The position numbers were made by a program, and so were the translations under genes. From positions 1,000-64,999 of the forward strand of contig JAEOTZ010000015.1 in assembly GCA_016839585.1 (NCBI GenBank): a stretch of 64,000 bases of DNA, written 5' to 3'. Positions 2,412 to 55,193 of the stretch are shown here, one piece after another. The stretch's first letter is position 1, and each line of letters opens with the position of its first letter. The stretch comes from Promethearchaeota archaeon. GTDB lineage: Archaea > Asgardarchaeota > Lokiarchaeia > Sigyniarchaeales > SOKP01. Below the pieces are notes generated by a model. That model saw only the letters and a list, made by a program, of their open reading frames with translations, made no database searches and was not told the DNA's origin.

Positions 2412-3494
2412 GTGAAGTGCTTTTTAATGAAATTTACTGAATATGCTAAGAATTATATCCCTAAGATTAACGATGCAATTAAGTTAATTTATGATAAGAA
2501 ATTAAATAGTATGGAAAATTCTTTTCTAAAAGATTATTATTCTGAATTGAAGGACTACTTTTTATCAGGAGGTAAAAGAATTCGTCCTTTATTATGCATA
2601 GCTACGTTTAACGCTTTTACAACTAATGTTGATAATAAGATTATATTTCCAAGTGTTGGAACAGAATTTCTTCATAATGCATCGTTAATTCATGATGATA
2701 TTATTGATAAAGATGATTTTCGAAGAGGAAAACCAGCTTTTCATTTCAGATTTCGAAAATATCATCAAAAATACAATTTAAAAAAGATGAATGCGCTAGA
2801 TTTTGGTAATTCTATTGGGATAATTGGGGGTGATTCTGCCTTTTTCTTGGGGCTGGAAGCTTATTTATTCAACGAATTTGAGCGAGATATAAACTTAAAA
2901 GCGATCCAATATTATGAGCAAGCATTTATAGAAGTAGCTAATGGAGTGTTGATTGAAACAGATATGGTAAACAAGAAAAATCTTACAATCTCAGATTATA
3001 TAAATATGATTTCACTTAAGACGGGAGCGTTAATTGAAAAATCAATATTGATAGGCGCTAATTACGCAAGAATAGATGATGAATACCTTTCATATCTTTC
3101 TACCTATGGTATTAATCTAGGAATTATCTTCCAAATAATTGATGATATATTAGGAACTTTTGGAGATGAAAAAGTCACTGGAAAACCAACAGATGGAGAT
3201 ATTAGGGAAGGAAAGAAGACATGCTTATTAATAGAAGCCCTTAATAAATTAGGAGATGATAAAAAGAAGATACTTGAAGATATTATTGAAAAATCAGAAA
3301 TGGAAGATGAAGATGTTCAGGAAGTAAAAAACTTATTTCTTGAAGCAAATGTAGTTGATTCATCTAAAAATTTGGCGATTTCCTATTTCAATGAAGCTAA
3401 AAGCGCATTAAATAAATTAACTCCGATAATCAACAAATCCGAATCAGAGTTTTTTGAAGATCTATTGAACTTTGTAATAAATAGGAGTTTTTGA
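2412..3494 (+). CDS. idsA: Short-chain trans-prenyl diphosphate synthase (geranylgeranyl diphosphate synthase type)
   Basis: GGKRIRP, first Asp-rich motif LIHDDIIDKDDFRRGKP, second Asp-rich motif FQIIDDILGTFGD, and GKPTDGDIREGKKT. The start may be GTG 2412 or ATG 2427. Product chain length cannot be decided by eye. Confidence 0.85.
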   Translation: MKCFLMKFTEYAKNYIPKINDAIKLIYDKKLNSMENSFLKDYYSELKDYFLSGGKRIRPLLCIATFNAFTTNVDNKIIFPSVGTEFLHNASLIHDDIIDKDDFRRGKPAFHFRFRKYHQKYNLKKMNALDFGNSIGIIGGDSAFFLGLEAYLFNEFERDINLKAIQYYEQAFIEVANGVLIETDMVNKKNLTISDYINMISLKTGALIEKSILIGANYARIDDEYLSYLSTYGINLGIIFQIIDDILGTFGDEKVTGKPTDGDIREGKKTCLLIEALNKLGDDKKKILEDIIEKSEMEDEDVQEVKNLFLEANVVDSSKNLAISYFNEAKSALNKLTPIINKSESEFFEDLLNFVINRSF

Positions 3495-3586
3495 AAAACA
3501 AATTAATTAAAAAAATTAATATAGGAAAAATATAAGAATTTGAAAAATAAAACAAAAAATATAAGAAAAAAAAGTGATATAGTTAA

Positions 3587-4135
3587 GTGTTAATTGCAAT
3601 TACTGGTGCTTCTGGCGTCCAAATAGCCATTAAATTACTAGAAAATCTAAATAAGAAGAAGGTGATGACTGAACTGATAATTTCAAAAATCGCTGAGGAA
3701 ATAATCAATATTGAAACGGATATTAGTATCTCCGATATTCGAAAATTAGCTGATAAAAACTATAATGTTGAAGATTTAACAGCTCCTCCTGCGAGTGGTT
3801 CGTATAAGATAGATACAATGGTTATTGTTCCATGTTCGATGAAAACATTGGCGGCTATTGCTAACGGATACGCAGATAACCTGATAACTAGAGCTGCTGA
3901 TGTGATGATAAAAGAAAAAAGAAAACTTATCCTTGTAGTGAGGGAAAGTCCTCTAAGTGCAATTCATCTTGAGAATATGCTTAAATTAGCAAAACTTGGA
4001 GTTGTAATAGCACCACCAGTTCCTTCCTATTACATCAAACCTAAAAGTGTGGATGATTTAATTGAATATACTGTTGGAAGGTTATTAGATCAGATGGGTA
4101 TAGAAAGTGATATAAAACGATGGGGAAATGAGTAA
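3587..4135 (+). CDS. ubiX: Flavin prenyltransferase UbiX (prenylated-FMN synthase)
   Basis: IAITGASG N-terminus, VIVPCSMKTLAAIANGYADNLITRAADV and LILVVRESPLS. At 182 aa it has typical UbiX size. It presumably supplies prFMN to the UbiD-type decarboxylase at 9984-11294. Confidence 0.9.
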   Translation: MLIAITGASGVQIAIKLLENLNKKKVMTELIISKIAEEIINIETDISISDIRKLADKNYNVEDLTAPPASGSYKIDTMVIVPCSMKTLAAIANGYADNLITRAADVMIKEKRKLILVVRESPLSAIHLENMLKLAKLGVVIAPPVPSYYIKPKSVDDLIEYTVGRLLDQMGIESDIKRWGNE

Positions 4136-4349
4136 GTTGTATATACCAATTCAAGAAGATATTGCACTCCAAATCTGTGAAGAAATTAGAGAAAAAAACA
4201 AGAAAAAAAAATTTAGCTTCGCAAAAGGGCAATGTTGGGGATGTATGAAATATTCTAATAAAAAAGGTGATATCAAACATCGATGTATATTTGTAAAAGA
4301 GGACAATAGAGGTTGCCATTTAGTTAATAAAGTTTTTGATACTAAATAG
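4128..4349 (+). CDS. Small Cys/His-rich protein, unknown function
   Basis: The ATG overlaps the ubiX stop (ATGAGTAA), which suggests translational coupling. A Lys-rich stretch is followed by CWGC, HRC and GCH, which are possible metal ligands. No family recognised; it could be spurious. Confidence 0.35.
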   Translation: MSKLYIPIQEDIALQICEEIREKNKKKKFSFAKGQCWGCMKYSNKKGDIKHRCIFVKEDNRGCHLVNKVFDTK

Positions 4350-4371
4350 TAAAAAGGATAATTCTATAAAC

Positions 4372-6264
4372 CTATTGATTTATCCACTGAGAAAGTTTTC
4401 CAGTAATTACTCTTTTATTTTTGTTCCCCTTTAAAGCATTAATGTCTTTTAGGTTTAAGAGCCAGAGACAAGATTTTAACTCATTTTTGAGAGTCTTTAT
4501 TTCTTTTATAGTATTAGAAATGGATCCTTGTTGTTGATCAATCAATGAAGATTTTAAAAATTTAAATGCAAATCCTCCGATATCAGCACCCAATACAATA
4601 CTTTTTGCAATATCTACTCCAGTTCTTAACCCTCCTGTAGCAATTATTAGTTTTTTAGATACATTTCTAACATTTAGCACACTAACAGGTGTAGGGATAC
4701 CCCATTCTCTAAAAACATCTGATAATTTACGATTAAATATATTACTGCCATTTTTATTACGATAGGATTCAATGGCTGCAAAACTAGTACCTCCTGCACC
4801 TCCAACATCAAATCCATCAAAACCAAGGTCATCTAGTGATTTAGCAAGTTCCTTGTTGAATCCTGATCCCACTTCTTTTGCTACTATTGGAACATTAGTA
4901 GATTCACGAATTTTTTTAAAATTTTCTTTAAATAGTCTAAAAGATATATCTCCTTTATCCTGAACCAATTCATGTAAAGCATTAAAATGAATTGCCATAG
5001 CATCAGCATTTATCATATCAATACATCCTGTGAAATCCTCTAGTTTAAAATCTGAACTTCCAACTTGCCCAATGCCAATATTTCCAATAATAGGGATATT
5101 AGGAGCTACTTTTCTTACAATTTGAAATGATTCTTGATTCTCAGGATTAATTAGTCCAGCACGTTGACTTCCAACACTCATGATTATATTTTCTTTTTCA
5201 GCTGAGGTTGCGAGGATCTCATTCAAATCTTTTGATAAGGGATGTCCTCCTGTTATTGCAGCAATACAAATCGGAGCAGATACAAATTTATTAAAAAAGT
5301 TCACAGATAGGTCAATTTCATTAAGATCAACTTCAGGTAAGGAATGATGAATTAACTCTATATATCTAAAATAATTTTTGAAATGTTGAACATTATATTT
5401 GATGGGTATTTTGAGATGTTCTATCTTTCTATTACTAATAATTTGATTTTCATCATGTTTTGATGGTTTAATTTCTGTGCATTTAATTTTCTGGCCTTTT
5501 AAGGCTTTATATATATTTTGATTTTCTAATCCATTAATAATTTGAACAGGAATATTATCTTTGCATATTTCTTTTATAGTGTTTATTTTTCCTCTAATAC
5601 CTCCAGTAACATCAATTTTTTGTCCCAGAGCTGCTAATTCTAAACTTTCTAATTCGTTGGAATTGCATTCTGTAACCAATTTACTTTTTTCATTATTATC
5701 TTGAATATATAACCCATCAGTTTCCATCGTAAATATGACTTTTGAAACGCTGTACTTATTTAAATTTTCACATAATTCAAAAATTATCCTATCTCCAGAA
5801 ATTATTGAAAACGAGCCTGGCTTCTCAAGAATAATATCACCATATAGAATAGGTAATATATTAAGATCCAAGGCAGTTTCAATAATATCAATAGAATATG
5901 TTGAGATAATTTGAGAATCTTTGATAAAAATACTGGAAGTTTGAACAGATAAGGCAGGATATTTATGTTCTAAAAATAAATTAATTATATAAGAATTAAA
6001 TTTATTCATTGATTGGTGAGTTTCTGAAAGTCCAAGAATTTGATTTGAGATAGATGAATCAATTCCTGTAGAAATATTATATTTTTTAGCAAGTGGATGA
6101 CCAAATGATCCTCCTCCATGAATCAATATTATTTTTTTATTAGCATCAATTATTTGCTGAACTACGCTTCTTACAACATTTTCTCTAATAGAAAAAGGTT
6201 TATTTTTATCAGTTAATATACTTCCACCTAATTTTAAGAGAATTATTTCATTACTATTTTTCAA
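4372..6264 (-). CDS. Fusion: isopentenyl phosphate kinase (N-terminal) + type 2 FMN-dependent isopentenyl-diphosphate isomerase (C-terminal)
   Basis: The N-terminal ~260 aa form an amino-acid-kinase fold with ILLKLGGSILTDK and IHGGGSFGH (IPK hallmarks). The C-terminal ~350 aa carry ITGG, SVGSQR, AIHFNALHELVQ, VAKEVGSGF, GGAGGTSFAAIE and ATGGLRTGVDIAKSIVLGAD (IDI-2 hallmarks). It is one uninterrupted 630-codon frame. Confidence 0.85.
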   Translation of the reverse strand: MKNSNEIILLKLGGSILTDKNKPFSIRENVVRSVVQQIIDANKKIILIHGGGSFGHPLAKKYNISTGIDSSISNQILGLSETHQSMNKFNSYIINLFLEHKYPALSVQTSSIFIKDSQIISTYSIDIIETALDLNILPILYGDIILEKPGSFSIISGDRIIFELCENLNKYSVSKVIFTMETDGLYIQDNNEKSKLVTECNSNELESLELAALGQKIDVTGGIRGKINTIKEICKDNIPVQIINGLENQNIYKALKGQKIKCTEIKPSKHDENQIISNRKIEHLKIPIKYNVQHFKNYFRYIELIHHSLPEVDLNEIDLSVNFFNKFVSAPICIAAITGGHPLSKDLNEILATSAEKENIIMSVGSQRAGLINPENQESFQIVRKVAPNIPIIGNIGIGQVGSSDFKLEDFTGCIDMINADAMAIHFNALHELVQDKGDISFRLFKENFKKIRESTNVPIVAKEVGSGFNKELAKSLDDLGFDGFDVGGAGGTSFAAIESYRNKNGSNIFNRKLSDVFREWGIPTPVSVLNVRNVSKKLIIATGGLRTGVDIAKSIVLGADIGGFAFKFLKSSLIDQQQGSISNTIKEIKTLKNELKSCLWLLNLKDINALKGNKNKRVITGKLSQWINQ

Positions 6265-6277
6265 TTTTCTATCCCTC

Positions 6278-7225
6278 TCATCCGATCATTGTTCTCCAGG
6301 CATCAAATCCTTCTTTTTCAATAGCCTTTGCTATTTTTTCTTGAATTTCTTCATTTTCAGCTAAAGCAATAACTAAGCCACCTCGTCCAGTTCCAGTCAT
6401 TTTAGCTCCAATTGCCCCGTTTTTAAGAGCTATCTTAACTAATTTATCATTTAACTCCCCAGAAACCGTGATCTCTTGTAGTAATTTGTGATTTTGATCC
6501 ATTAAATTGCCAATAGCTACTATATCTCCGTCAAGCAACGATTTTTTTGCTTTCTCTGCTAAATTTTTATATTTACTAAATATTTTATCAAACTTTTTTG
6601 GATTTTCTTCTTTTAATCTTCGAACATCAGCAACAACTTCTGTTGTAGAAGCTGTTATTCCTGAATTTATTATTACTAAAGGCATTTTCTTTGGTGATTG
6701 TAGAAGTTTCATCGTATTTTCCCCCCCTCTCAAGTTTTTAACAAACCAAATTAGACCACCATAAGTAGAGGCTGTATTATCAATACCTGAAGGAGTACCA
6801 TGATAGGCTTTCTCTCCTTCATATGCTGCTTTATTTATCTCTTTTTCAGTTAATTTGAGATTAAATGTGTCACTTATAGCTCGAGAAAGTGATGTACATT
6901 GAGCAGCTGAAGCACCTACTCCGCTCGCGGCAATCAGATCCCCAGCAAATGTTATTTCAAGTTTTTGTTTCTCGATATCTACTCTCAAATACTCAATTAT
7001 ATTTGTAATTGATTTTACTGCCTCATTAAATTTTTTCTTTTTATATCCCGGTGTGGCTAATCTTTTATCATCAACTATAAAGCCTTTGCCCTCAACTACT
7101 TTAACTTCTGCAATCGTAGAAGATCCTAACGCTGATGCAATTGCTGGAAGACCATACACAACAAAATGTTTGCGTTTATTTCTGAAATAAGAAATAAATT
7201 TCGCCAAAAAGTATGGTCTTTCCAT
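6278..7225 (-). CDS. mvk: Mevalonate kinase (GHMP kinase)
   Basis: HFVVYGLPAIASAL, the GHMP motif ASGVGASAA, HGTPSGIDNTASTYGG (catalytic Asp region) and KMTGTGRGG. The N-terminal PGK..GEH motif looks divergent (AKFISYFRNKRKH). Confidence 0.8.
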   Translation of the reverse strand: MERPYFLAKFISYFRNKRKHFVVYGLPAIASALGSSTIAEVKVVEGKGFIVDDKRLATPGYKKKKFNEAVKSITNIIEYLRVDIEKQKLEITFAGDLIAASGVGASAAQCTSLSRAISDTFNLKLTEKEINKAAYEGEKAYHGTPSGIDNTASTYGGLIWFVKNLRGGENTMKLLQSPKKMPLVIINSGITASTTEVVADVRRLKEENPKKFDKIFSKYKNLAEKAKKSLLDGDIVAIGNLMDQNHKLLQEITVSGELNDKLVKIALKNGAIGAKMTGTGRGGLVIALAENEEIQEKIAKAIEKEGFDAWRTMIG

Positions 7226-7357
7226 ATCCTTTTCCAGTTCCCAAATTTTTCACCAATTATACTCGTATAATATGATAAAGTTTGAAAATATACAAATTTT
7301 TATTAATATCTCAATCTTTGACTTAGTTAAATAATTTTTAACTTTATTTAAGTTGTA

Positions 7358-8377
7358 TTAAAATAAATGTTCATTAGTTGTATAAGAATCGTTAGCAGGC
7401 CTTACAAGAATGGTTTTTTCGATACCTTCAATATTTTCCAAGATATTTTGAACATATTCAATGATTTCTGGTCGGCATAAACAGTGTACATTTGGTCCTG
7501 CATCGATGGTAAAGAAGCAATCTAAATTTTCAGATTTTCGTAAATATAATACTTTCTTTATTACTTTTAAAGTAATTGGACTCCAATAAAATAATGCTGG
7601 TTCGGATGTCATCATTACTGAATGCATAAACATACAATTTTTTTCAGCAATCATTCCGACCTTCTTAAAATCATCATTTAGAATAGCAGCTTTGATTTCA
7701 ACAGCTTGTTCATGGGATTTTTTAATTCTTATTGGATTAAAAATACTAGTTTTTGCCAATTCGTGACCTAAATCAGAGGTAACATCCTTTTTTCCTTCAT
7801 CTATTATGGCAATAATAGCATTTATGTCGAAATCATATGAACCGCATATCTTTTCTGCATAAGAGGTTTCATGGGAGATGCCCTGATACCAATATACAAA
7901 TCCACCATGAATTGAACGTGCTGCAGAACCAGAACCTAATCTCGCATATGTGGACAATTCCTCTTGTGTTAAATCCAAACTTAATGCTTTTGCTGCGGCA
8001 ATAGTAAGTGCAGCAAAACCAGCAGCGGAAGAAGCTAAGCCTGCTTGGGTAGGAAAATCATTAAAACTCATCATTTTGAATTTATAATCAATCTTTTTTA
8101 AGTTTCTTAATGGATTAATAATTTTTAGAATTCTTTCCATATCTCTTCCTTTTAAGGGATTATTATTTAATATTGCCTCGTTTTCCTTAAAATCTTCTGA
8201 AAATTCTATTGTTGTATGAGTTTGTAAGTGAATACTTTCCGAAAATCCATATTTCGTCATGCTTACACTATCATTTAAAGGTATATTTAACTTTGGGGAC
8301 ACTTTATCCCAATTACCCCAATATTTTATCAGTGCTATATTTGAATGAGCAATTGCAGAAGATTTCATAAACACCAA
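7358..8377 (-). CDS. Diphosphomevalonate decarboxylase-family enzyme; substrate (mevalonate 5-phosphate, 5-diphosphate or 3,5-bisphosphate) not decidable by eye
   Basis: NIALIKYWGN, GLASSAAGFAAL, RLGSGSAARSIHGGFV and FFTIDAGPNVH, with the catalytic Asp position retained. These are MDD/PMD family hallmarks. Confidence 0.8.
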   Translation of the reverse strand: MVFMKSSAIAHSNIALIKYWGNWDKVSPKLNIPLNDSVSMTKYGFSESIHLQTHTTIEFSEDFKENEAILNNNPLKGRDMERILKIINPLRNLKKIDYKFKMMSFNDFPTQAGLASSAAGFAALTIAAAKALSLDLTQEELSTYARLGSGSAARSIHGGFVYWYQGISHETSYAEKICGSYDFDINAIIAIIDEGKKDVTSDLGHELAKTSIFNPIRIKKSHEQAVEIKAAILNDDFKKVGMIAEKNCMFMHSVMMTSEPALFYWSPITLKVIKKVLYLRKSENLDCFFTIDAGPNVHCLCRPEIIEYVQNILENIEGIEKTILVRPANDSYTTNEHLF

Positions 8378-8382
8378 AAAAA

Positions 8383-8775
8383 CTAATCTATTATTTCGAT
8401 AGTTCCTTCTGAACCATTAACAATGAGTCTTTGCCCCGTTTTTATGTTAGTAGTATCAATTTTATCCACACAAGGAATTTCACTGATTATACACCCTACT
8501 GCAACAATTGTATCAATTTGCTTATTAACAATTGCTGCTGGAGCCATGTTATTTTTCTTCATTCTATACATTGTGTATGATCCAACTGTTGAACCTTTAC
8601 CAGTTGGAAATACTAGAACTTTTCCAGTTATAGATTCACCTTCAAGTTCATGTCCAACCTCAACAACTTTGCCAGTATCAGGATCAACACCCCCATAAAA
8701 CGAAATAGCATCTTTGGTTACAATAGCTTCTGCTTCAGCAGTTCCTTTATATATTTTTCTCCCTTCTAACTTCAT
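8383..8775 (-). CDS. Phosphomevalonate dehydratase small subunit (aconitase X swivel domain)
   Basis: 130 aa with GTAEAEAIVTKDAISFYGGVDPDTGKV and VLVFPTGKGSTVGSY. Its start overlaps the stop of the large-subunit gene by 4 nt. Confidence 0.8.
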   Translation of the reverse strand: MKLEGRKIYKGTAEAEAIVTKDAISFYGGVDPDTGKVVEVGHELEGESITGKVLVFPTGKGSTVGSYTMYRMKKNNMAPAAIVNKQIDTIVAVGCIISEIPCVDKIDTTNIKTGQRLIVNGSEGTIEIID

Positions 8776-9980
8776 TTTATCGCCTCTTCAACACATGCTT
8801 CAATTGATCCAATTTTTACTTTAAATTTATTCTTTGCACGTCCATAATAACATGCCTTTGCAGAATCCACCATTATTCCCTTGAAGCGTTCCTTAATTGG
8901 GGCTACAACACAGCAAGTATCTGCTGCAAACTTTGCTCCAGCATCTTCAATAATTTTAGAATAACCAACTTCATCTGCAATTTTTTTTGTAGGTCGAGCA
9001 GTTGTTATCCAAAATTCTTTTTTTACTGTTTTTCCTCTTAATAAATTCGCTATTTTCGCAATTTCGTGAATTGAAGCGTGAGGACAACCAATACTTACAA
9101 AATCTATTTCAATATCGTCATCAGTTAGTTCAGCACGAGTTTTATCTAAGTCATCTTGATTAATTTCAAACACAATATTGCTAGGTTTAGGGTATTTATT
9201 GTACTCTGGAGTTATTTCTTCCATATGGAATAATGCTGTTCCACCATAAGTAGCAACGGAAGCACAAAATGACTTAAGTTCTTCAACAGTAGCGGAAGGA
9301 ATTCCCGTGATATAAGGTATTTTTTTTCCTAATTTGACCAATTTATCGCCAATTATTTTTCCCAATACGCCAAATTCGTCAGTACCTTTAACTGGTGCAT
9401 TTATCTTAAAGAGAACTTGAGCATGACGATTTTCATCCAAATGATAACCGTATTTAGGAGTTTTTCCAATTAGAGCCGCTGCTAATGCGCTTGGTCCCCC
9501 CTCACGATTCGTTCGAGCTCCAATAACTGAGTTAGAATAGCAAACAGCACTGCTTTCAGCCCAAGCAATATGTTGTCCATAATGAGGTGCATTTCCAATT
9601 AAATATGGTGTACAAGAACACGTTGTAATTATACCCATTTTAGCAAAGGCATCTATTGCACGATTCTGATTTTTAGCAAACTCTCTATCAATTCCTAATG
9701 CTTGCCAATTTTCGCGATCCATTCCAGCGGGATTTAAAGTAGTTAATACTCTAACCCTTCCATCTTCTGACATTTCGCTTAGAAAATCCAGTCCCGCTTC
9801 ACCAAGATTATCGTAAGAAACTCCAGCTATCTGAACGCCATGAACATCAACCATGCATTCAGCATCAAATATTTCGCCTAATGTAGTTAAGATTTCCATA
9901 GATTTTTTGGTGGCTTTTCCATACCTGCCATCCAGCATATCTTGCTCTTCTTGAGTTAATTTCATTTTCATCAACTTCAA
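8772..9980 (-). CDS. Phosphomevalonate dehydratase large subunit (aconitase X catalytic domain, DUF521-type)
   Basis: N-terminus LTQEEQDMLDGRYGKATKKSM, HGVQIAGVSY, and Cys-containing segments TTCSCTP and SIGCPHAS typical of AcnX Fe-S proteins. It is tightly packed between the UbiD-like gene and the small-subunit gene. Confidence 0.8.
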   Translation of the reverse strand: MKLMKMKLTQEEQDMLDGRYGKATKKSMEILTTLGEIFDAECMVDVHGVQIAGVSYDNLGEAGLDFLSEMSEDGRVRVLTTLNPAGMDRENWQALGIDREFAKNQNRAIDAFAKMGIITTCSCTPYLIGNAPHYGQHIAWAESSAVCYSNSVIGARTNREGGPSALAAALIGKTPKYGYHLDENRHAQVLFKINAPVKGTDEFGVLGKIIGDKLVKLGKKIPYITGIPSATVEELKSFCASVATYGGTALFHMEEITPEYNKYPKPSNIVFEINQDDLDKTRAELTDDDIEIDFVSIGCPHASIHEIAKIANLLRGKTVKKEFWITTARPTKKIADEVGYSKIIEDAGAKFAADTCCVVAPIKERFKGIMVDSAKACYYGRAKNKFKVKIGSIEACVEEAIK

Positions 9981-9983
9981 ACA

Positions 9984-11294
9984 TTAAAAATATTTGTTAA
10001 TATCCACTTTTGGAAATTCTGCTATATCAAAACTCTTCCCTTTGGCTACGAGTGGTTTAGTCAAATCAAAACCAATTTTTGTCGTCATTTTTGTACCAGG
10101 TTCAGCACTTGGATCTAAACTACTTCCAGGTTCTTTATCTTTAATGACCATTCTAAAATCTCCTTGAAAGCGAGTTGCCATTGCCCATTCTACCGAAAGA
10201 GGATCATAAATATTTATGTCTTTATCTACAATAAATACATGTTTACAACTTGTATGGCCCGTAAAAGCACCTTCTATTGCCTTTTTGCCATCATCTTCAG
10301 ATTTTTTATCAATTTGGATAATTGCATGTAACCAAGAACATCCACCAGGATTAACATTCACATCTAAGCACTTAACACCTGCCTTATTTACCTCATTAAA
10401 AATGGTAGGCTCACGAGGCATTCCCATTAATATTTTATGTTCAAGTGCCCCTGGTAATAAGGCTTGCCAAATTGCATCCTTTCTATGCGTAATTTTCTTC
10501 ACTTCAAAAATAGGTTCTTCTCTAACTATGTCATATGTCTCAGTAAGATCAACAAAAGGACCTTCAGAATGTTTTTCTTCCAAGTAAACACGTCCTTCTA
10601 AGACAAATTCAGCTTCTGCGGGAATTAAAAGATCAACTGAATTCGCTTTTACAATATTGATAGGTTCTAATGCATTAGCAATATATAATTCATCAACTCC
10701 AATGTCTACAGAGGTGGCCCCTGCAATCAGAATGTTAGGAGTATTACCAATACAAAAGGCAACCTCTAATTCACCATTTTTTTCTAGAAATGTATGAAAA
10801 TGTCGACCTCTAACTATACGAGTGGAAAATTTATCTTTAAAAAACTGCATTGCTCTATGAAAATCCATATTTTGTCCATAATCAGGGTCTCTTGTTATAA
10901 CAACTGCAGAACTAATGTAATTTCCTCCGTCTTTTTCACAATGGAACAAAATTGGCAATTTATCTAAATCTACATTTGATTCGATTACTTCTTGACAAGG
11001 AGCTTTTGATACAACCTCTGGTTCCGAGTATTCGGATATTGCTTTAGAAAGCATTGGTATGAGATCAGCAGGAGAAACACCAAAGTATGACGCAATTACA
11101 TTCTTAGTACAGATCATATTGCCAACAACCCGAAATTCAGATTCTTTAACATTATTGAACATTACTGGAGTTGGCTCTATCTCTTTTAGAATTCCAGAAA
11201 TCTCCAATTTCTTCGAAACTTCAACATCTACTTTTCGTAGATGTCCCTCTTCATCAATTTTTTTTAAATATTCTCTAAATCCCATAAAATTCAT
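9984..11294 (-). CDS. UbiD-family prFMN-dependent decarboxylase, probable trans-anhydromevalonate 5-phosphate decarboxylase
   Basis: UbiD-like N-terminus (FREYLKKIDEEGHLRKVDVEVSKKLEISGI, PVMFNNVKESEFRVVGNM) and 436 aa length. Substrate is inferred from its position 3 nt from the AcnX genes and from ubiX in the same cluster. Confidence 0.75.
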   Translation of the reverse strand: MNFMGFREYLKKIDEEGHLRKVDVEVSKKLEISGILKEIEPTPVMFNNVKESEFRVVGNMICTKNVIASYFGVSPADLIPMLSKAISEYSEPEVVSKAPCQEVIESNVDLDKLPILFHCEKDGGNYISSAVVITRDPDYGQNMDFHRAMQFFKDKFSTRIVRGRHFHTFLEKNGELEVAFCIGNTPNILIAGATSVDIGVDELYIANALEPINIVKANSVDLLIPAEAEFVLEGRVYLEEKHSEGPFVDLTETYDIVREEPIFEVKKITHRKDAIWQALLPGALEHKILMGMPREPTIFNEVNKAGVKCLDVNVNPGGCSWLHAIIQIDKKSEDDGKKAIEGAFTGHTSCKHVFIVDKDINIYDPLSVEWAMATRFQGDFRMVIKDKEPGSSLDPSAEPGTKMTTKIGFDLTKPLVAKGKSFDIAEFPKVDINKYF

Positions 11295-11375
11295 CTTTTA
11301 AACTTTTTTATCATAATAAAATTATCAACATCAGTGATTTCCCTTAGAAGAGTTATAGAAACACATTTTATAAAT

Positions 11376-12662
11376 CTAAAGGTTTTCACCATCTTCTATT
11401 TTTTTTAAAATTTCTTTAGCATAATCTACTCTAATTTTTTTATCTTCTACTAATATTCTGGCAACTTTTTCAATTAAATCGTCCGGGATGCCAGCAATTT
11501 TAGCAATATTTCGAGAATGTAGAGCCATATGACCTTCTTGAATACCTTCAGAAGCTAAGGCCCTTAAAGCAGCAACATTCTGGGCAAGTCCTAAAGCAGC
11601 TGCGATTTGTGAAAGTTCTTCAGCACTCTTAACATTTAAGATTTTTAAAGCTATTCGAGCCATTGGATGGATTTTCGTCATACCACCAATAATTCCTAGA
11701 GCTAAAGGTATTTCTATTTCTCCCACTAAATTTCCTCCTGAATCGACTTTAAATTTTGTTAATGGAGAATATCTTCCTTTTAAAGAAGCATAAGCATGAG
11801 CCCCTGCCTCAACTGCTCGTGTATCATTCCCAGTTGCTAAACTTAATGCGACGATACCATTCATTATACCTTTATTATGCGTAGTTGCTCTATAAGGATC
11901 TGCTAGAGCGAATTCGTATGCATTTAAAATCCCTTCAACTATTTCTTTTCCACCTAGCAGTTCTTTATCAAAAGTGGCTTTACTTCTAGCCAAGCGATGA
12001 GTAGCTAAATTGGATACAATTCGGAGATAAATCTTTCCTCCACAGATCTCTTCTATATAAGGACTAATAGATTCAGCCATAGTATTTACTACATTTGCAC
12101 CCATTGCATCTAGAACATTTACTAATAAATGAAGAATAATCATCTTCCCCTTATTAGTATTAATTTCTCTTATCTCTATGTCCTGAGCTCCCCCACCTAA
12201 CTTATTTAATACAGGATCCTGCTCATTAGCTATCTTTATTAGGCTTTTTTTATTCTTTTTTAGAGCTTTTTTAGCTATTTCAATATCATTTAATTTTGTT
12301 AATTGAATCTGAGAAATCATAATTGATTTTACTTCTTCTGAGTGAAATCCACCATGTTTTCGGGCCATCTTCGCTGCATTTGAGGCAGCTGCAACCACAG
12401 AAGGCTCTTCTATAACCATAGGGATAATATAATCTCTATCATTTATTTTAAAATTAAAAGCAAGACCAAATGGTAATTGATAACTTCCTATCACATTTTC
12501 AATTAAAGAATCAATCTGAGTAGGAGTGAAATAGCCTAAATCCTTTAATATTTTTACTTCCTCTGGATTTAAATTAACTAAATTAGATAATAATTTTATA
12601 CGCTCATCCATTGATAACTTGTAAAACCCAGAAATATCTGAACGAAATTCCTTCATTACCAT
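11376..12662 (-). CDS. hmgA: HMG-CoA reductase, class II type (soluble, 428 aa)
   Basis: IENVIGSYQLP, PMVIEEPSVVAAASNAAKMAR (class II form, where class I has TTEGCLVAS), VLDAMGANVVN and GHMALHSRNIA. There is no membrane domain. Confidence 0.85.
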   Translation of the reverse strand: MVMKEFRSDISGFYKLSMDERIKLLSNLVNLNPEEVKILKDLGYFTPTQIDSLIENVIGSYQLPFGLAFNFKINDRDYIIPMVIEEPSVVAAASNAAKMARKHGGFHSEEVKSIMISQIQLTKLNDIEIAKKALKKNKKSLIKIANEQDPVLNKLGGGAQDIEIREINTNKGKMIILHLLVNVLDAMGANVVNTMAESISPYIEEICGGKIYLRIVSNLATHRLARSKATFDKELLGGKEIVEGILNAYEFALADPYRATTHNKGIMNGIVALSLATGNDTRAVEAGAHAYASLKGRYSPLTKFKVDSGGNLVGEIEIPLALGIIGGMTKIHPMARIALKILNVKSAEELSQIAAALGLAQNVAALRALASEGIQEGHMALHSRNIAKIAGIPDDLIEKVARILVEDKKIRVDYAKEILKKIEDGENL

Positions 12663-12769
12663 TTCACTAATTCAAAAACTAATAAATTTTACTAAATCTT
12701 TTCGCAATTTTTTTGCAAAGGGAGATTTATGATTATCAAGGTAATAATTAATCAATATAGGAATTTGAG

Positions 12770-14404
12770 TTAATATATGTGGTGAACAGGAATAGGTATA
12801 TAAACGGGAATCCAGTTCAATAACCCTTTTGCGTTTATGTTTTCTTCATATTCACTTTTGACCCTTCTGACTTCGTATTCTAAGGAATTACCCTTGTTAA
12901 CATGACCAGCTACTCTTACATATCCTTTATTTAAATAACTAAAATCATTAAATTCATGATGACCAACTAGTTCAGATGCCAATACAGCAAATAGAGGAAA
13001 AAATCTTTTATGTAATCCTGAGTGTCCCTTAGGACAGTGATCTAATCCCTCAATATTTGGGATAATACATCCCTCATCACAAAAATGAAGTGTAAAACCT
13101 CTATTTTTGTTTTGTTTGTGTTCAGTAATTCGCCCTAATAAAACGATTGGTTTAACGTCACCATTTTTTATTAGTTCATATTCTAAAACACTTCTCTTTT
13201 TCTTTAAGTGAATATAATCATTTATTTTTGGTCCCTTTTGAACAATTTCTTTAAACCTATCCTTAACTTTTAAAAGACCAGAAATACATGTAGCTCCTGA
13301 ACCATATGAACCAAAATAAATTATATCATTAACGTGAGCATGATTTTCGAGAAGGAAAACGATCTGAGCCCAAACACTAGCATTGTACATATTTCCAAAA
13401 TGCATAGGAACTCGTAGTTGCGGTAATACTCTCGCTTTCACATTTGTGTTCAACCAATTTGAAAGTCTTTCTAAAGTTGCCGAAGAAAATCCTTTTTCAT
13501 TAAGTTTTAAATAAATATATTCTGGAAGGACGATAACATCATGTAAGAATGAATCAATTTTTCTCAAAATTGATGACGTAAAGCTGTTTCGTTCAAATCT
13601 CGTTAAATCACTTATATGTTTTATCCAACGTTTTAATATGATTTGTTGCATACATTTCAAGGGTAATTTAGAATATGGAGCGTGAAACGAGTAAAAATCG
13701 GCATGAAAATCTCCAATATTGCTAATTAAGTTATCGTAAGCTTTTAATTGAAAGTCAAGATATGTATCTTGAGAATATTTACCAAAAGCGCTCGCATTTT
13801 TGTCATTTGCAGGTCTGAAAAAGTCATTTACATTTCCAGAGACTTTTCCGAACCGTTTAGAAAATGTTGCAATCCGCGGATTCTTGGAAATTACAAGTCC
13901 AATTGCTCCTGAACCCTGTGTTGGTTCGCCGGGGGAGCCTAGATGATATGAAGAAATATCACTACTGATTACTAGGGCTTTATTTATGATTTCTTTTTCA
14001 ATCATTGCGATAGCATTAAGAATTGCTAGCGTACCGCCAGCACAGGCATTGTAAACATCCATTGTAAGCGCATTGGGCGAAATGGACAACATTTCAGCGA
14101 AAATATTCGATATGCTCTTCGCTGCATATACTTCGGTTTCCGTTCCTACGAATAATGCGTCAATACTCTTAGGAACAATTTTCCCCCTCTGTAAAGCATT
14201 ATACCCTGCTTTTAATCCGAGAGAGATAATATCTTCATCCACTTCAGGGATTCGTATTTCTTTAGATAGAAGCCCTTTACTATATTTAGCTGGATCTACA
14301 TTTCTTTTCAGCGCTAGTTCTGCTAATTTCAAATAAGATCTTGGAGCTGCGAAAGAAGCACTATCAATCCCTATGTCTCCAAATAAATAATCATTGCTTA
14401 TCAT
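12770..14404 (-). CDS. HMG-CoA synthase (MvaS-like) with ~150 aa Cys/His-containing C-terminal extension
   Basis: GIDSASFAAPRSYLKLAELALKRNVDPAKY, VGTETEVYAAKS (Glu), VYNACAGGT (catalytic Cys), FHAPYSKL (His) and GNMYNASVW. At 544 aa it is longer than the ~350-390 aa typical for the enzyme. The tail carries HFCDEGC and HCPKGH followed by beta-rich sequence. Confidence 0.8.
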   Translation of the reverse strand: MISNDYLFGDIGIDSASFAAPRSYLKLAELALKRNVDPAKYSKGLLSKEIRIPEVDEDIISLGLKAGYNALQRGKIVPKSIDALFVGTETEVYAAKSISNIFAEMLSISPNALTMDVYNACAGGTLAILNAIAMIEKEIINKALVISSDISSYHLGSPGEPTQGSGAIGLVISKNPRIATFSKRFGKVSGNVNDFFRPANDKNASAFGKYSQDTYLDFQLKAYDNLISNIGDFHADFYSFHAPYSKLPLKCMQQIILKRWIKHISDLTRFERNSFTSSILRKIDSFLHDVIVLPEYIYLKLNEKGFSSATLERLSNWLNTNVKARVLPQLRVPMHFGNMYNASVWAQIVFLLENHAHVNDIIYFGSYGSGATCISGLLKVKDRFKEIVQKGPKINDYIHLKKKRSVLEYELIKNGDVKPIVLLGRITEHKQNKNRGFTLHFCDEGCIIPNIEGLDHCPKGHSGLHKRFFPLFAVLASELVGHHEFNDFSYLNKGYVRVAGHVNKGNSLEYEVRRVKSEYEENINAKGLLNWIPVYIPIPVHHIY

Positions 14405-14736
14405 TACCGTTATTGCTCGTTTTTATGTACAATGCTTTTAAATTTTAAATAAAGTCAAAATTTTTGGTTTTGATTAAATAAATTTCTAATAAATTAAATA
14501 AAATTCTATTAAAAGTTTTAAAGAACCTACCGTTAAATATCTTTTCTTTTTATTCTCAGACTCTTAAGAATATCAACAGTTCATATTATTATATATAGTG
14601 AATCCAAAATTTTAACAAAAGTGCTTGGTCAAAATCATAGAATTGAAGATCACCATAGATGATTAGTATATCATAAAATTATATATGAATTATTCATATT
14701 CTTATTTGTAGTAAATTGCAATTTTAGGTAAAAATT

Positions 14737-15462
14737 TTGGAAGAATTCAAGAACGTAGATAGGGATAAATTACCTAAACATATTGGTTTGATCCTCGATG
14801 GGAATCGCCGTTGGGCAAGAGAAAATAACATGGCTACTCATTTAGGTCATTTAGTAGGATATAGAACATTAAGGGAGAGATTATTTGATTTTTTTGATGC
14901 TGGGATTCGATATCTAACAATATATGCCCTCTCACTTGAAAATGCTAGAAAGAGGAGCCCTAAAGAATTAAAGTATATCTATAAAATTATATTAAAAGCT
15001 GTTGATACTGTTATAAAAGAATCAATAATAAGAGAAGAGAAAATAAAAATAAATGTTATTGGAAGATTATCTGTATTACCCAACAATGTTCAGGAAAAAA
15101 TTAAAAAGTTAAATGAATTTACTAAGGACCATGACCATGCATTTTTGAATGTATGTATTATGTATGACGGACAAGAAGAAATCGTAGATGCTGTAAAAAA
15201 GATTATTAAGGATAATATTAATGAGGACGATATTAATCGAGAATTAATTAAAAACTATCTCTATACTAATAATTTTCCAGAATTAGATTATTTAATCCGA
15301 ACTGGGATGGAAGACGGTGCTAGAATTTCAGGATTTTTATTGTGGGATGCTTCCTATGCGGAATTTAAATTTCGATCTGATTATTGGCCGGATTATAGTA
15401 GAGAAATGCTTATTGAAGATCTAAAAGACTATATTAAAAGAGTTAGGCGAAAGGGAGAATAA
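14737..15462 (+). CDS. uppS: cis-Prenyltransferase (undecaprenyl/dolichyl-type polyprenyl diphosphate synthase)
   Basis: HIGLILDGNRRWA, YLTIYALSLEN and DYLIRTGMEDGARISGFLLWDASYAEFKF. TTG start. Transcribed divergently from the mevalonate operon. Confidence 0.9.
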   Translation: MEEFKNVDRDKLPKHIGLILDGNRRWARENNMATHLGHLVGYRTLRERLFDFFDAGIRYLTIYALSLENARKRSPKELKYIYKIILKAVDTVIKESIIREEKIKINVIGRLSVLPNNVQEKIKKLNEFTKDHDHAFLNVCIMYDGQEEIVDAVKKIIKDNINEDDINRELIKNYLYTNNFPELDYLIRTGMEDGARISGFLLWDASYAEFKFRSDYWPDYSREMLIEDLKDYIKRVRRKGE

Positions 15463-55090: not shown

Positions 55091-55193
55091 GCCTCTGTTG
55101 CTTAGCCGGTAGAGCGTTGCCTTGGTAAGGCAAAAGATCGGAGCACATCACTTCGAACTGCTAGGGTCGCGGGTTCAATTCCCGCCGGGGGCT
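55091..55193 (+). tRNA. tRNA-Thr (anticodon GGU) with a ~30-nt intron at a non-canonical position (variable-loop region)
   Basis: Acceptor GCCTCTG/CGGGGGC. D-arm GCTT-AGCCGGTA-GAGC. Anticodon arm TTGCC-TTGGTAA-GGCAA with GGT at 55124-55126. T-arm GCGGG-TTCAATT-CCCGC. Discriminator T at 55193. There are 35 nt (55134-55168) between the anticodon stem and the T-stem, where 5 are expected. Confidence 0.85.

Follow-up and report, generated by a model that had tools for sequence, protein, structure and literature searches.

A 64,000-nucleotide stretch of Promethearchaeota (Lokiarchaeia) DNA (hereafter the window; contig C87, JAEOTZ010000015.1, of the 3.45-Mb genome G000, which is 99% complete and has a G+C content of ~30%) carries eleven isoprenoid genes within 13 kb, and their sequences make it fairly probable, in our judgement, that this isoprenoid-precursor operon encodes two parallel routes by which mevalonate 5-phosphate is turned into isopentenyl phosphate. 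One would be the archaeal mevalonate route, consisting of an aconitase-X (AcnX) type dehydratase, a UbiD-family decarboxylase and UbiX; the other would depend on P0001, a member of the mevalonate diphosphate decarboxylase (MDD) family that is probably a phosphomevalonate decarboxylase (PMD) providing an ATP-dependent bypass. An earlier note on this DNA had listed the same genes, recognised the archaeal route, pointed to an MDD-family gene with an intact catalytic-Asp motif inside the operon and proposed that its product might be a PMD. All of the named genes were recovered at the coordinates in Table 1 with Pfam and NCBIfam models, read against curated cut-offs, and the PMD proposal is supported by the best structural match of P0001, two active-site residues, its clade in a phylogeny, the failure to find a phosphomevalonate kinase (PMK) and the presence of an isopentenyl phosphate kinase (IPK) in the operon.

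In the scheme that we propose, a thiolase encoded elsewhere would supply acetoacetyl-CoA, HMG-CoA synthase (HMGS) and class II HMG-CoA reductase (HMGR) would lead to mevalonate, and mevalonate kinase (MVK) would form mevalonate 5-phosphate. The first route would then proceed free of ATP, through the [4Fe-4S] dehydratase AcnX followed by a UbiD decarboxylase dependent on prenylated flavin mononucleotide (prFMN), a cofactor supplied by UbiX, to isopentenyl phosphate; the second would reach the same product in a single ATP-dependent step, with the MDD-family enzyme acting as PMD. Isopentenyl phosphate from either would be converted by a protein fusing IPK to type 2 isopentenyl diphosphate isomerase (IDI2) into isopentenyl diphosphate and dimethylallyl diphosphate, the substrates of the two prenyltransferases of the cluster.

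The AcnX/UbiD/UbiX set looks intact, as judged from the residues and domains retained. The AcnX large subunit (AcnXL) found its best match among solved structures in 7cnr, the type II AcnX of Thermococcus kodakarensis (1e-99, versus 3e-57 for type I proline dehydratases), which was solved with mevalonate 5-phosphate bound. Specifically, Cys123, Cys299, Cys356, Glu142 and Lys375 of AcnXL align with T. kodakarensis Cys110, Cys283, Cys342, Glu129 and Lys361, of which the three cysteines are the Fe-S cluster ligands and Glu129 and Lys361 lie near the fourth iron (PMC8184944); the equivalent residues of Aeropyrum pernix are given in PMC10040528. The UbiD gene, in the same orientation, ends with its stop codon 3 nt before the start of AcnXL, and its product retains all the UbiD domains and is most similar among solved structures to another UbiD enzyme, 6h6v.

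P0001 is a protein of 339 aa as called, but its relatives begin at its codon 4 (ATG, position 8368), which is likely the true start. Both PF22700 and PF18376 match it, Asp292 is the catalytic Asp of its FFTIDAGPNVH motif, and Ser149, Ser151 and Arg154, together with Asp292, align with the catalytic residues of solved enzymes. Among solved structures, the strongest match was to 6n0x, the PMD of Anaerolinea thermophila (4e-66), followed by bacterial diphosphomevalonate decarboxylases (DMDs; 6e-55 or weaker), the Saccharolobus DMD (3e-39), eukaryotic DMDs (2e-34 or weaker) and mevalonate 3-kinase (3e-7).

The phylogeny and active-site comparison suggested in the earlier note both point to PMD. 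The A. thermophila PMD has been turned to DMD specificity by mutagenesis (PMC9254496), and the variant 6n0z differs from 6n0x across the aligned residues only by N24K and H198M; the role that we assign to these two positions is taken from the two PDB sequences and the statement in that paper. P0001 has Asn22 and His205 there, that is, the PMD state. In an alignment of 150 sequences taken from a database search covering 1.84 billion representatives, the Lys/Met pair was invariant at these positions in all 79 Lys/Met-type representatives, and His occupied the second position in 65 of the 150, the first position in these being Asn, Lys, Arg, Gln or others. In the maximum-likelihood tree, which is anchored indirectly, by cluster names and one PDB match, P0001 fell within a clade of 15 sequences (SH-aLRT support 96), all 15 of the His type and labelled Loki, Bathyarchaeota or, in a few cases, bacterial. 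This clade is nested in a group of 75 sequences, 61 of them of the His type, that also contains Anaerolineales proteins, one of which scored 363 bits against the solved PMD; 69 of the 79 Lys/Met sequences fell outside the group.

A classical DMD combines Lys21 and Met in its diphosphate pocket with a PMK encoded in the same genome, whereas here we found Asn22, His205 and no PMK. The earlier note had seen no PMK in the window, and we extended this to the whole genome, where six-frame searches with bacterial and archaeal GHMP-type PMK models gave no PMK over any cut-off; the same models found none in five further genomes carrying a close homolog of P0001 (type A, below). The best matches to the PMK models were the operon MVK and three GHMP paralogs, none of which was closer to PMK than to MVK; one of the paralogs immediately precedes a sugar-1-phosphate nucleotidyltransferase gene and one is HddA-like. 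The animal-type PMK model, PF04275, matched nothing in the genome, nor in any of the control genomes. Nor did the genome yield a mevalonate 3-kinase, the sole match to that model being the MDD gene itself (40.7 bits). The operon does encode IPK, an enzyme required by every monophosphate route.

Distribution of the decarboxylase among related genomes

We surveyed 121 genomes sampled from the order, denoting the family of the window f1 and its MK-D1-like sister family f2. Three lineages of the decarboxylase were distinguished. Type A, to which P0001 belongs (TIGR01240 at least 233 bits, ~340 aa), lies directly after the AcnX small subunit (AcnXS) gene and was present in 8 genomes; A2 (213-264 bits), with a longer reading frame and a variable position, was present in 5; and type B (92-147 bits, ~400 aa), which shares about 25-31% identity with type A, was present in 35 (22 in f1 and 13 in f2). 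Type B occupies a different place, between HMGS and HMGR, at a distance of 3.74 kb from AcnX that was constant in 14 genomes. A single-protein search of public genomes returned five close relatives only.

Within the genus of the window, the operon exists in three states, with no decarboxylase, with type A or with type B. In the decarboxylase-free state, the AcnXS and MVK genes are 20 nt apart, and it is between these two genes that type A sits. Two sediment metagenomes that hold the present sequence also have contigs in which the end of AcnXS lies nearly next to the start of MVK, with no decarboxylase between them, which places non-carriers in the same type of habitat. The decarboxylase of this family is thus a variable, optional add-on to a conserved operon. 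No remnants of type A were seen when we looked for them in genomes lacking type A. Between orthologs, type A is 84-87% identical, near the values for AcnXL (85-87%) and UbiD (83-89%), and the G+C content at third codon positions of the type A gene (0.22) is like that of its neighbours; since the composition matches, we rejected a recent horizontal transfer of the decarboxylase gene. Apparent double absences of AcnX and MDD within the genus proved to be assembly gaps (a contig end in G037 and 219 N in G095), and in the assemblies of G113, G114 and G118, which had no HMGR match, the operon was not found; none of these five genomes was counted as evidence of absence.

These data bear on the possibility that one route only works, with either the AcnX/UbiD set or the MDD homolog being a relic or retargeted and the operon a snapshot of pathway replacement. 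Family f2 looks decarboxylase-only, with type B in 13 of 14 genomes, a closed 4.3-Mb genome among them, and an AcnX match in 1 of the 14, and numerous f1 genomes carry AcnX and UbiD but no MDD-family gene, both of which would suit such a replacement. However, the catalytic residues are kept in both sets, both are about as conserved as neighbouring essential genes, and AcnX accompanies the decarboxylase in all 13 type A or A2 genomes and in 20 of the 22 type B genomes of f1, so that 33 of the 35 decarboxylase-bearing f1 genomes, this one included, hold both sets, unlike what would be expected of a brief transition. We regard a single working route as unlikely.

Substrate and possible role of the decarboxylase

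Several observations weigh against two working routes with P0001 as a PMD. The residue at the position of Arg83 in the PMD of Roseiflexus, an arginine for which Dellas et al. 2013 (PMC3857490, Table 4) suggested a role in binding the single phosphate, is Asn31 in P0001 and in its whole clade, although it is Arg in the Anaerolineales relatives and in type B, and the loop around residues 23-31 has three more residues than that of the Chloroflexi PMD relatives. P0001 passes the curated DMD model TIGR01240 (233 bits, cut-off 171) and fails the haloarchaeal PMD model NF040704 (193 bits, cut-off 475). The bacterial PMK model stayed below its own cut-off even in the Lactococcus control, which makes the absence test softer, and the assignment of the UbiD protein as anhydromevalonate phosphate decarboxylase (AMPD) comes from its genomic context. 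As to TIGR01240, that model cannot separate PMD from DMD, because Chloroflexi PMDs of the characterised type are also named DMD in databases. The bisphosphomevalonate decarboxylase model NF040847 was failed by P0001 as well (54.8 bits, cut-off 560).

With Asn31 in place of Arg, dual specificity has to be considered, and P0001 might be a DMD or a dual-specificity enzyme, served by an unrecognised PMK activity (for example, a promiscuous MVK or a non-homologous kinase) in a partial eukaryote-type route. Besides the TIGR01240 score, the MDD-like states that Asn31 and Ser201 represent in Table 4 of PMC3857490 would fit this explanation, and dual specificity, as a PMD-DMD intermediate, is suggested in passages of Zhu et al. 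2024 (PMC11052028). Against this stand the Asn and His at the sites of Lys21 and Met, of which Lys21 is invariant in the 79 Lys/Met-type sequences; the acidic Asp202, at a position where Lys/Met-type representatives carry Arg, as many of them do, or Thr; and the lack of a PMK-like gene in the six genomes searched, with the GHMP paralogs in sugar-nucleotide contexts. We think it quite unlikely that P0001 works in this way. Least probable of all, and in our view very doubtful, is that the MDD homolog has another main job (another 3-hydroxy acid phosphate, salvage or regulation) and sits in the operon for co-regulation only, for although functional shifts to mevalonate 3-kinase and bisphosphate decarboxylase are known in the MDD family (PMC9254496) and the longer loop is a feature of this clade, every residue for phosphoryl transfer and decarboxylation is present, the MDD gene lies at the same place, flanked by the dehydratase genes and MVK, in at least 13 genomes or contigs, and partner enzymes for another route were not found.

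Returning to P0001 as a PMD, we infer its substrate preference and also its physiological role, which may be that of a backup free of the oxygen-labile Fe-S cluster and of prFMN, at the cost of one ATP. The cofactor prFMN itself derives from dimethylallyl phosphate, one of the products of the pathway, and for this reason the archaeal route is unable to start from zero on its own. A bypass could serve as a backup because the dehydratase is oxygen-sensitive and inactivated by oxidation (PMC12547664, PMC10040528) and because the UbiD step needs prFMN. More tentatively, and as a possibility that we would not rate highly, the decarboxylase might be a safety module of the archaeal mevalonate pathway that has been acquired repeatedly and varies between strains, used when the [4Fe-4S] dehydratase fails or prFMN is limiting. 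Because the gene is present in some close relatives and absent from others, these could be compared to ask why an anaerobe should spend one extra ATP per isoprene unit. In addition, the archaeal route, which uses no ATP, has attractions for bioproduction but is sensitive to oxygen (PMC12547664), and its pairing with a robust bypass in one operon may be a useful design.

Operon layout and other features

Eight of the genes are tightly packed on the minus strand, with intergenic gaps of -4 to 132 nt, and this block is flanked by the GGPP synthase-like gene and UbiX on one side and by the cis-prenyltransferase gene on the other (Table 1). The order HMGS-HMGR-UbiD-AcnXL-AcnXS-MDD-MVK-IPK/IDI2 was found again in further members of the genus and on five contigs of public metagenome-assembled genomes (MAGs), and the nearest relatives of the encoded proteins come from MAGs labelled Promethearchaeota; because the order is repeated on independent public Promethearchaeota MAG contigs, it is not an assembly artefact. 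One public contig, DATKTW010000113.1 (L023), carries the operon at 86% protein identity and was deposited as 'Candidatus Nanopelagicaceae bacterium', a name that is probably a binning or labelling error. IPK and IDI2 are fused in G000, G012, G061 and G067, and are two separate genes in G079, G022 and L023.

Table 1. Isoprenoid genes of the window and the insert in the MVK gene (positions within the window)
Feature	Position	Strand	Evidence
Trans-prenyl diphosphate synthase, short-chain, geranylgeranyl diphosphate (GGPP) synthase-like	2412-3494	+	PF00348 9e-56; best NCBIfam models are GGPP synthase types, all below equivalog cut-offs
UbiX flavin prenyltransferase (prFMN for UbiD)	3587-4135	+	TIGR00421 255 bits, cut-off 109
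IPK (aa 8-265)-IDI2 (aa 278-615) fusion	4372-6264	-	NF040647 217 bits, cut-off 120; TIGR02151 348 bits, cut-off 281
MVK	6278-7225 (called ORF), to ~7244 with probable TTG start	-	TIGR00549 211 bits, cut-off 163
Candidate bulge-helix-bulge (BHB) type mini-intron, 31-nt hairpin insert within MVK active-site motif	7169-7199	-	
MDD-family decarboxylase, type A, probable PMD (P0001)	7358-8377	-	TIGR01240 233 bits, cut-off 171; best PDB match 6n0x, 4e-66
AcnX small subunit (phosphomevalonate dehydratase, swivel domain)	8383-8775	-	PF01989 8e-36; NF003046 180 bits, cut-off 163
AcnX large subunit (phosphomevalonate dehydratase, type II)	8772-9980	-	PF04412 504 bits; best PDB match 7cnr, 1e-99
UbiD-family decarboxylase, presumed AMPD	9984-11294	-	Three UbiD Pfam domains; TIGR00148 368 bits
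Class II HMGR	11376-12662	-	TIGR00532 473 bits, cut-off 260
HMGS, with C-terminal extension of ~150 aa	12770-14404	-	PF01154 and PF08540; TIGR01835 223 bits, below cut-off
Cis-prenyltransferase (UppS family)	14737-15462	+	TIGR00055 198 bits, cut-off 110

The MVK gene contains a 31-nt insert that is a candidate BHB-type (tRNA-type) mini-intron, as judged from its predicted fold and its variation. The N-terminal motif of the kinase, GKTILFGE|HFVVYG, is split over two reading frames by the insert, which shifts the frame by one, and deletion of the 31 nt rebuilds the motif (GKTILFGEHFVVYG). The unspliced frame stays open here, so that the called ORF, which starts at an ATG at 7225, hides the insert and is without the motif; the true start is probably the TTG. 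The insert folds into a GCG/CGC helix, an AAA bulge and a 9-bp stem, and compensatory base changes were present in the insert of relatives (GCG/CGC to GUG/CAC, and CU/AG to CC/GG). In G079, which belongs to another genus, the MVK insert is absent. Elsewhere in the window, Rfam located a 103-nt tRNA at 55091-55193 (+) that was missed by ARAGORN and is presumably an intron-containing archaeal tRNA.

The absence of an acetoacetyl-CoA thiolase from the cluster, remarked on in the earlier note, is real, and our search of the genome found thiolases elsewhere. Contig C67 (L015:1480-3178) has an archaeal-type thiolase gene adjoining a DUF35 protein gene, and on contig C47 (L016:18-2661) a gene for a second HMGS-like protein, of archaeal type and with a fused DUF35 domain (zinc ribbon and OB), adjoins another thiolase gene (acetyl-CoA acetyltransferase); the genome may thus have two HMG-CoA synthase systems. 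The C-terminal extension of the operon HMGS (residues 395-544) has a Cys/His motif (CDEGC ... HCPKGH) and gave no match in a Pfam search, and the HMGS of relatives, those of the sister family among them, has it too (540-573 aa); it may serve as a scaffold in the manner of DUF35.

Comparison with known systems

Asgard archaea are central to the debate on the origin of the eukaryotic mevalonate pathway and membranes, and a lokiarchaeal 'DMD-like' enzyme has been proposed as a PMD-DMD intermediate. The two-route gene pattern and the PMD proposal are already published at the genomic level for the same order: Zhu et al. 2024 (Microorganisms 12:707, PMC11052028), as far as its main-text passages and supplementary tables are concerned, describes 'chimeric' mevalonate pathways in Asgard MAGs, with five Lokiarchaeia genomes in Table S3 that have HMGS, HMGR2, MVK, IPK, IDI2, a DMD homolog, AcnX1, AcnX2 and AMPD but no PMK, and the same co-occurrence tabulated for some Bathyarchaeia and Thermoplasmata. 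According to these passages, genomes of the Lokiarchaeia order CR-4 have DMD homologs without PMK, in which the DMD lysine is lost and the PMD histidine kept, as in Chloroflexota, and a PMD-like or dual activity is proposed for them. Our case thus shares with CR-4 its lineage, gene pattern, motif argument and proposed activity. The genes are treated there as an evolutionary intermediate, however, and the main-text passages, supplementary legends and tables do not describe the three lineages A, B and A2 or the decarboxylase-free sediment relatives. What is new here is the decarboxylase as a variable add-on, its three lineages, of which two each have a constant position of their own in the operon, and the non-carriers in the same sediments; the cluster itself is a clean, complete and well-conserved example of a two-route operon.

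As in the PMDs of Chloroflexota (Roseiflexus castenholzii, PMC3857490; A. thermophila, 6n0x), P0001 has Asn at Lys21, His at Met and the catalytic Asp, Ser and Arg, and the hosts of those enzymes likewise have IPK and no PMK. Identity to the A. thermophila PMD is roughly 45% over the aligned region, as estimated by eye, and 40-44% to representatives of the Anaerolineales group. P0001 differs from these enzymes in having Asn31 for Arg83, Asp202 for Thr, Ser or Phe and the three extra loop residues, and its host differs in also carrying the archaeal route.

The Haloarchaea-type pathway of Prometheoarchaeum MK-D1 and f2 (MVK, PMD and IPK) belongs to the same order of archaea and is likewise without PMK, in a cluster ordered HMGS-decarboxylase-HMGR-MVK-IPK-IDI2. 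The decarboxylase in these genomes is, however, the distant type B, which matches the PMD 6n0x and the bisphosphate decarboxylase 7t71 with roughly equal scores, and the MK-D1/f2 genomes are without AcnX and UbiD, apart from the one AcnX match noted above. With the archaeal mevalonate pathway of A. pernix and Methanosarcina mazei (phosphomevalonate dehydratase, AMPD, UbiX and IPK), the present operon shares a two-subunit type II AcnX with three Cys ligands, a UbiD gene that stops 3 nt ahead of AcnXL, UbiX, MVK and IPK, all clustered; it departs from that pathway, which does not need such a gene, in having an ATP-dependent MDD-family gene inserted in the operon.

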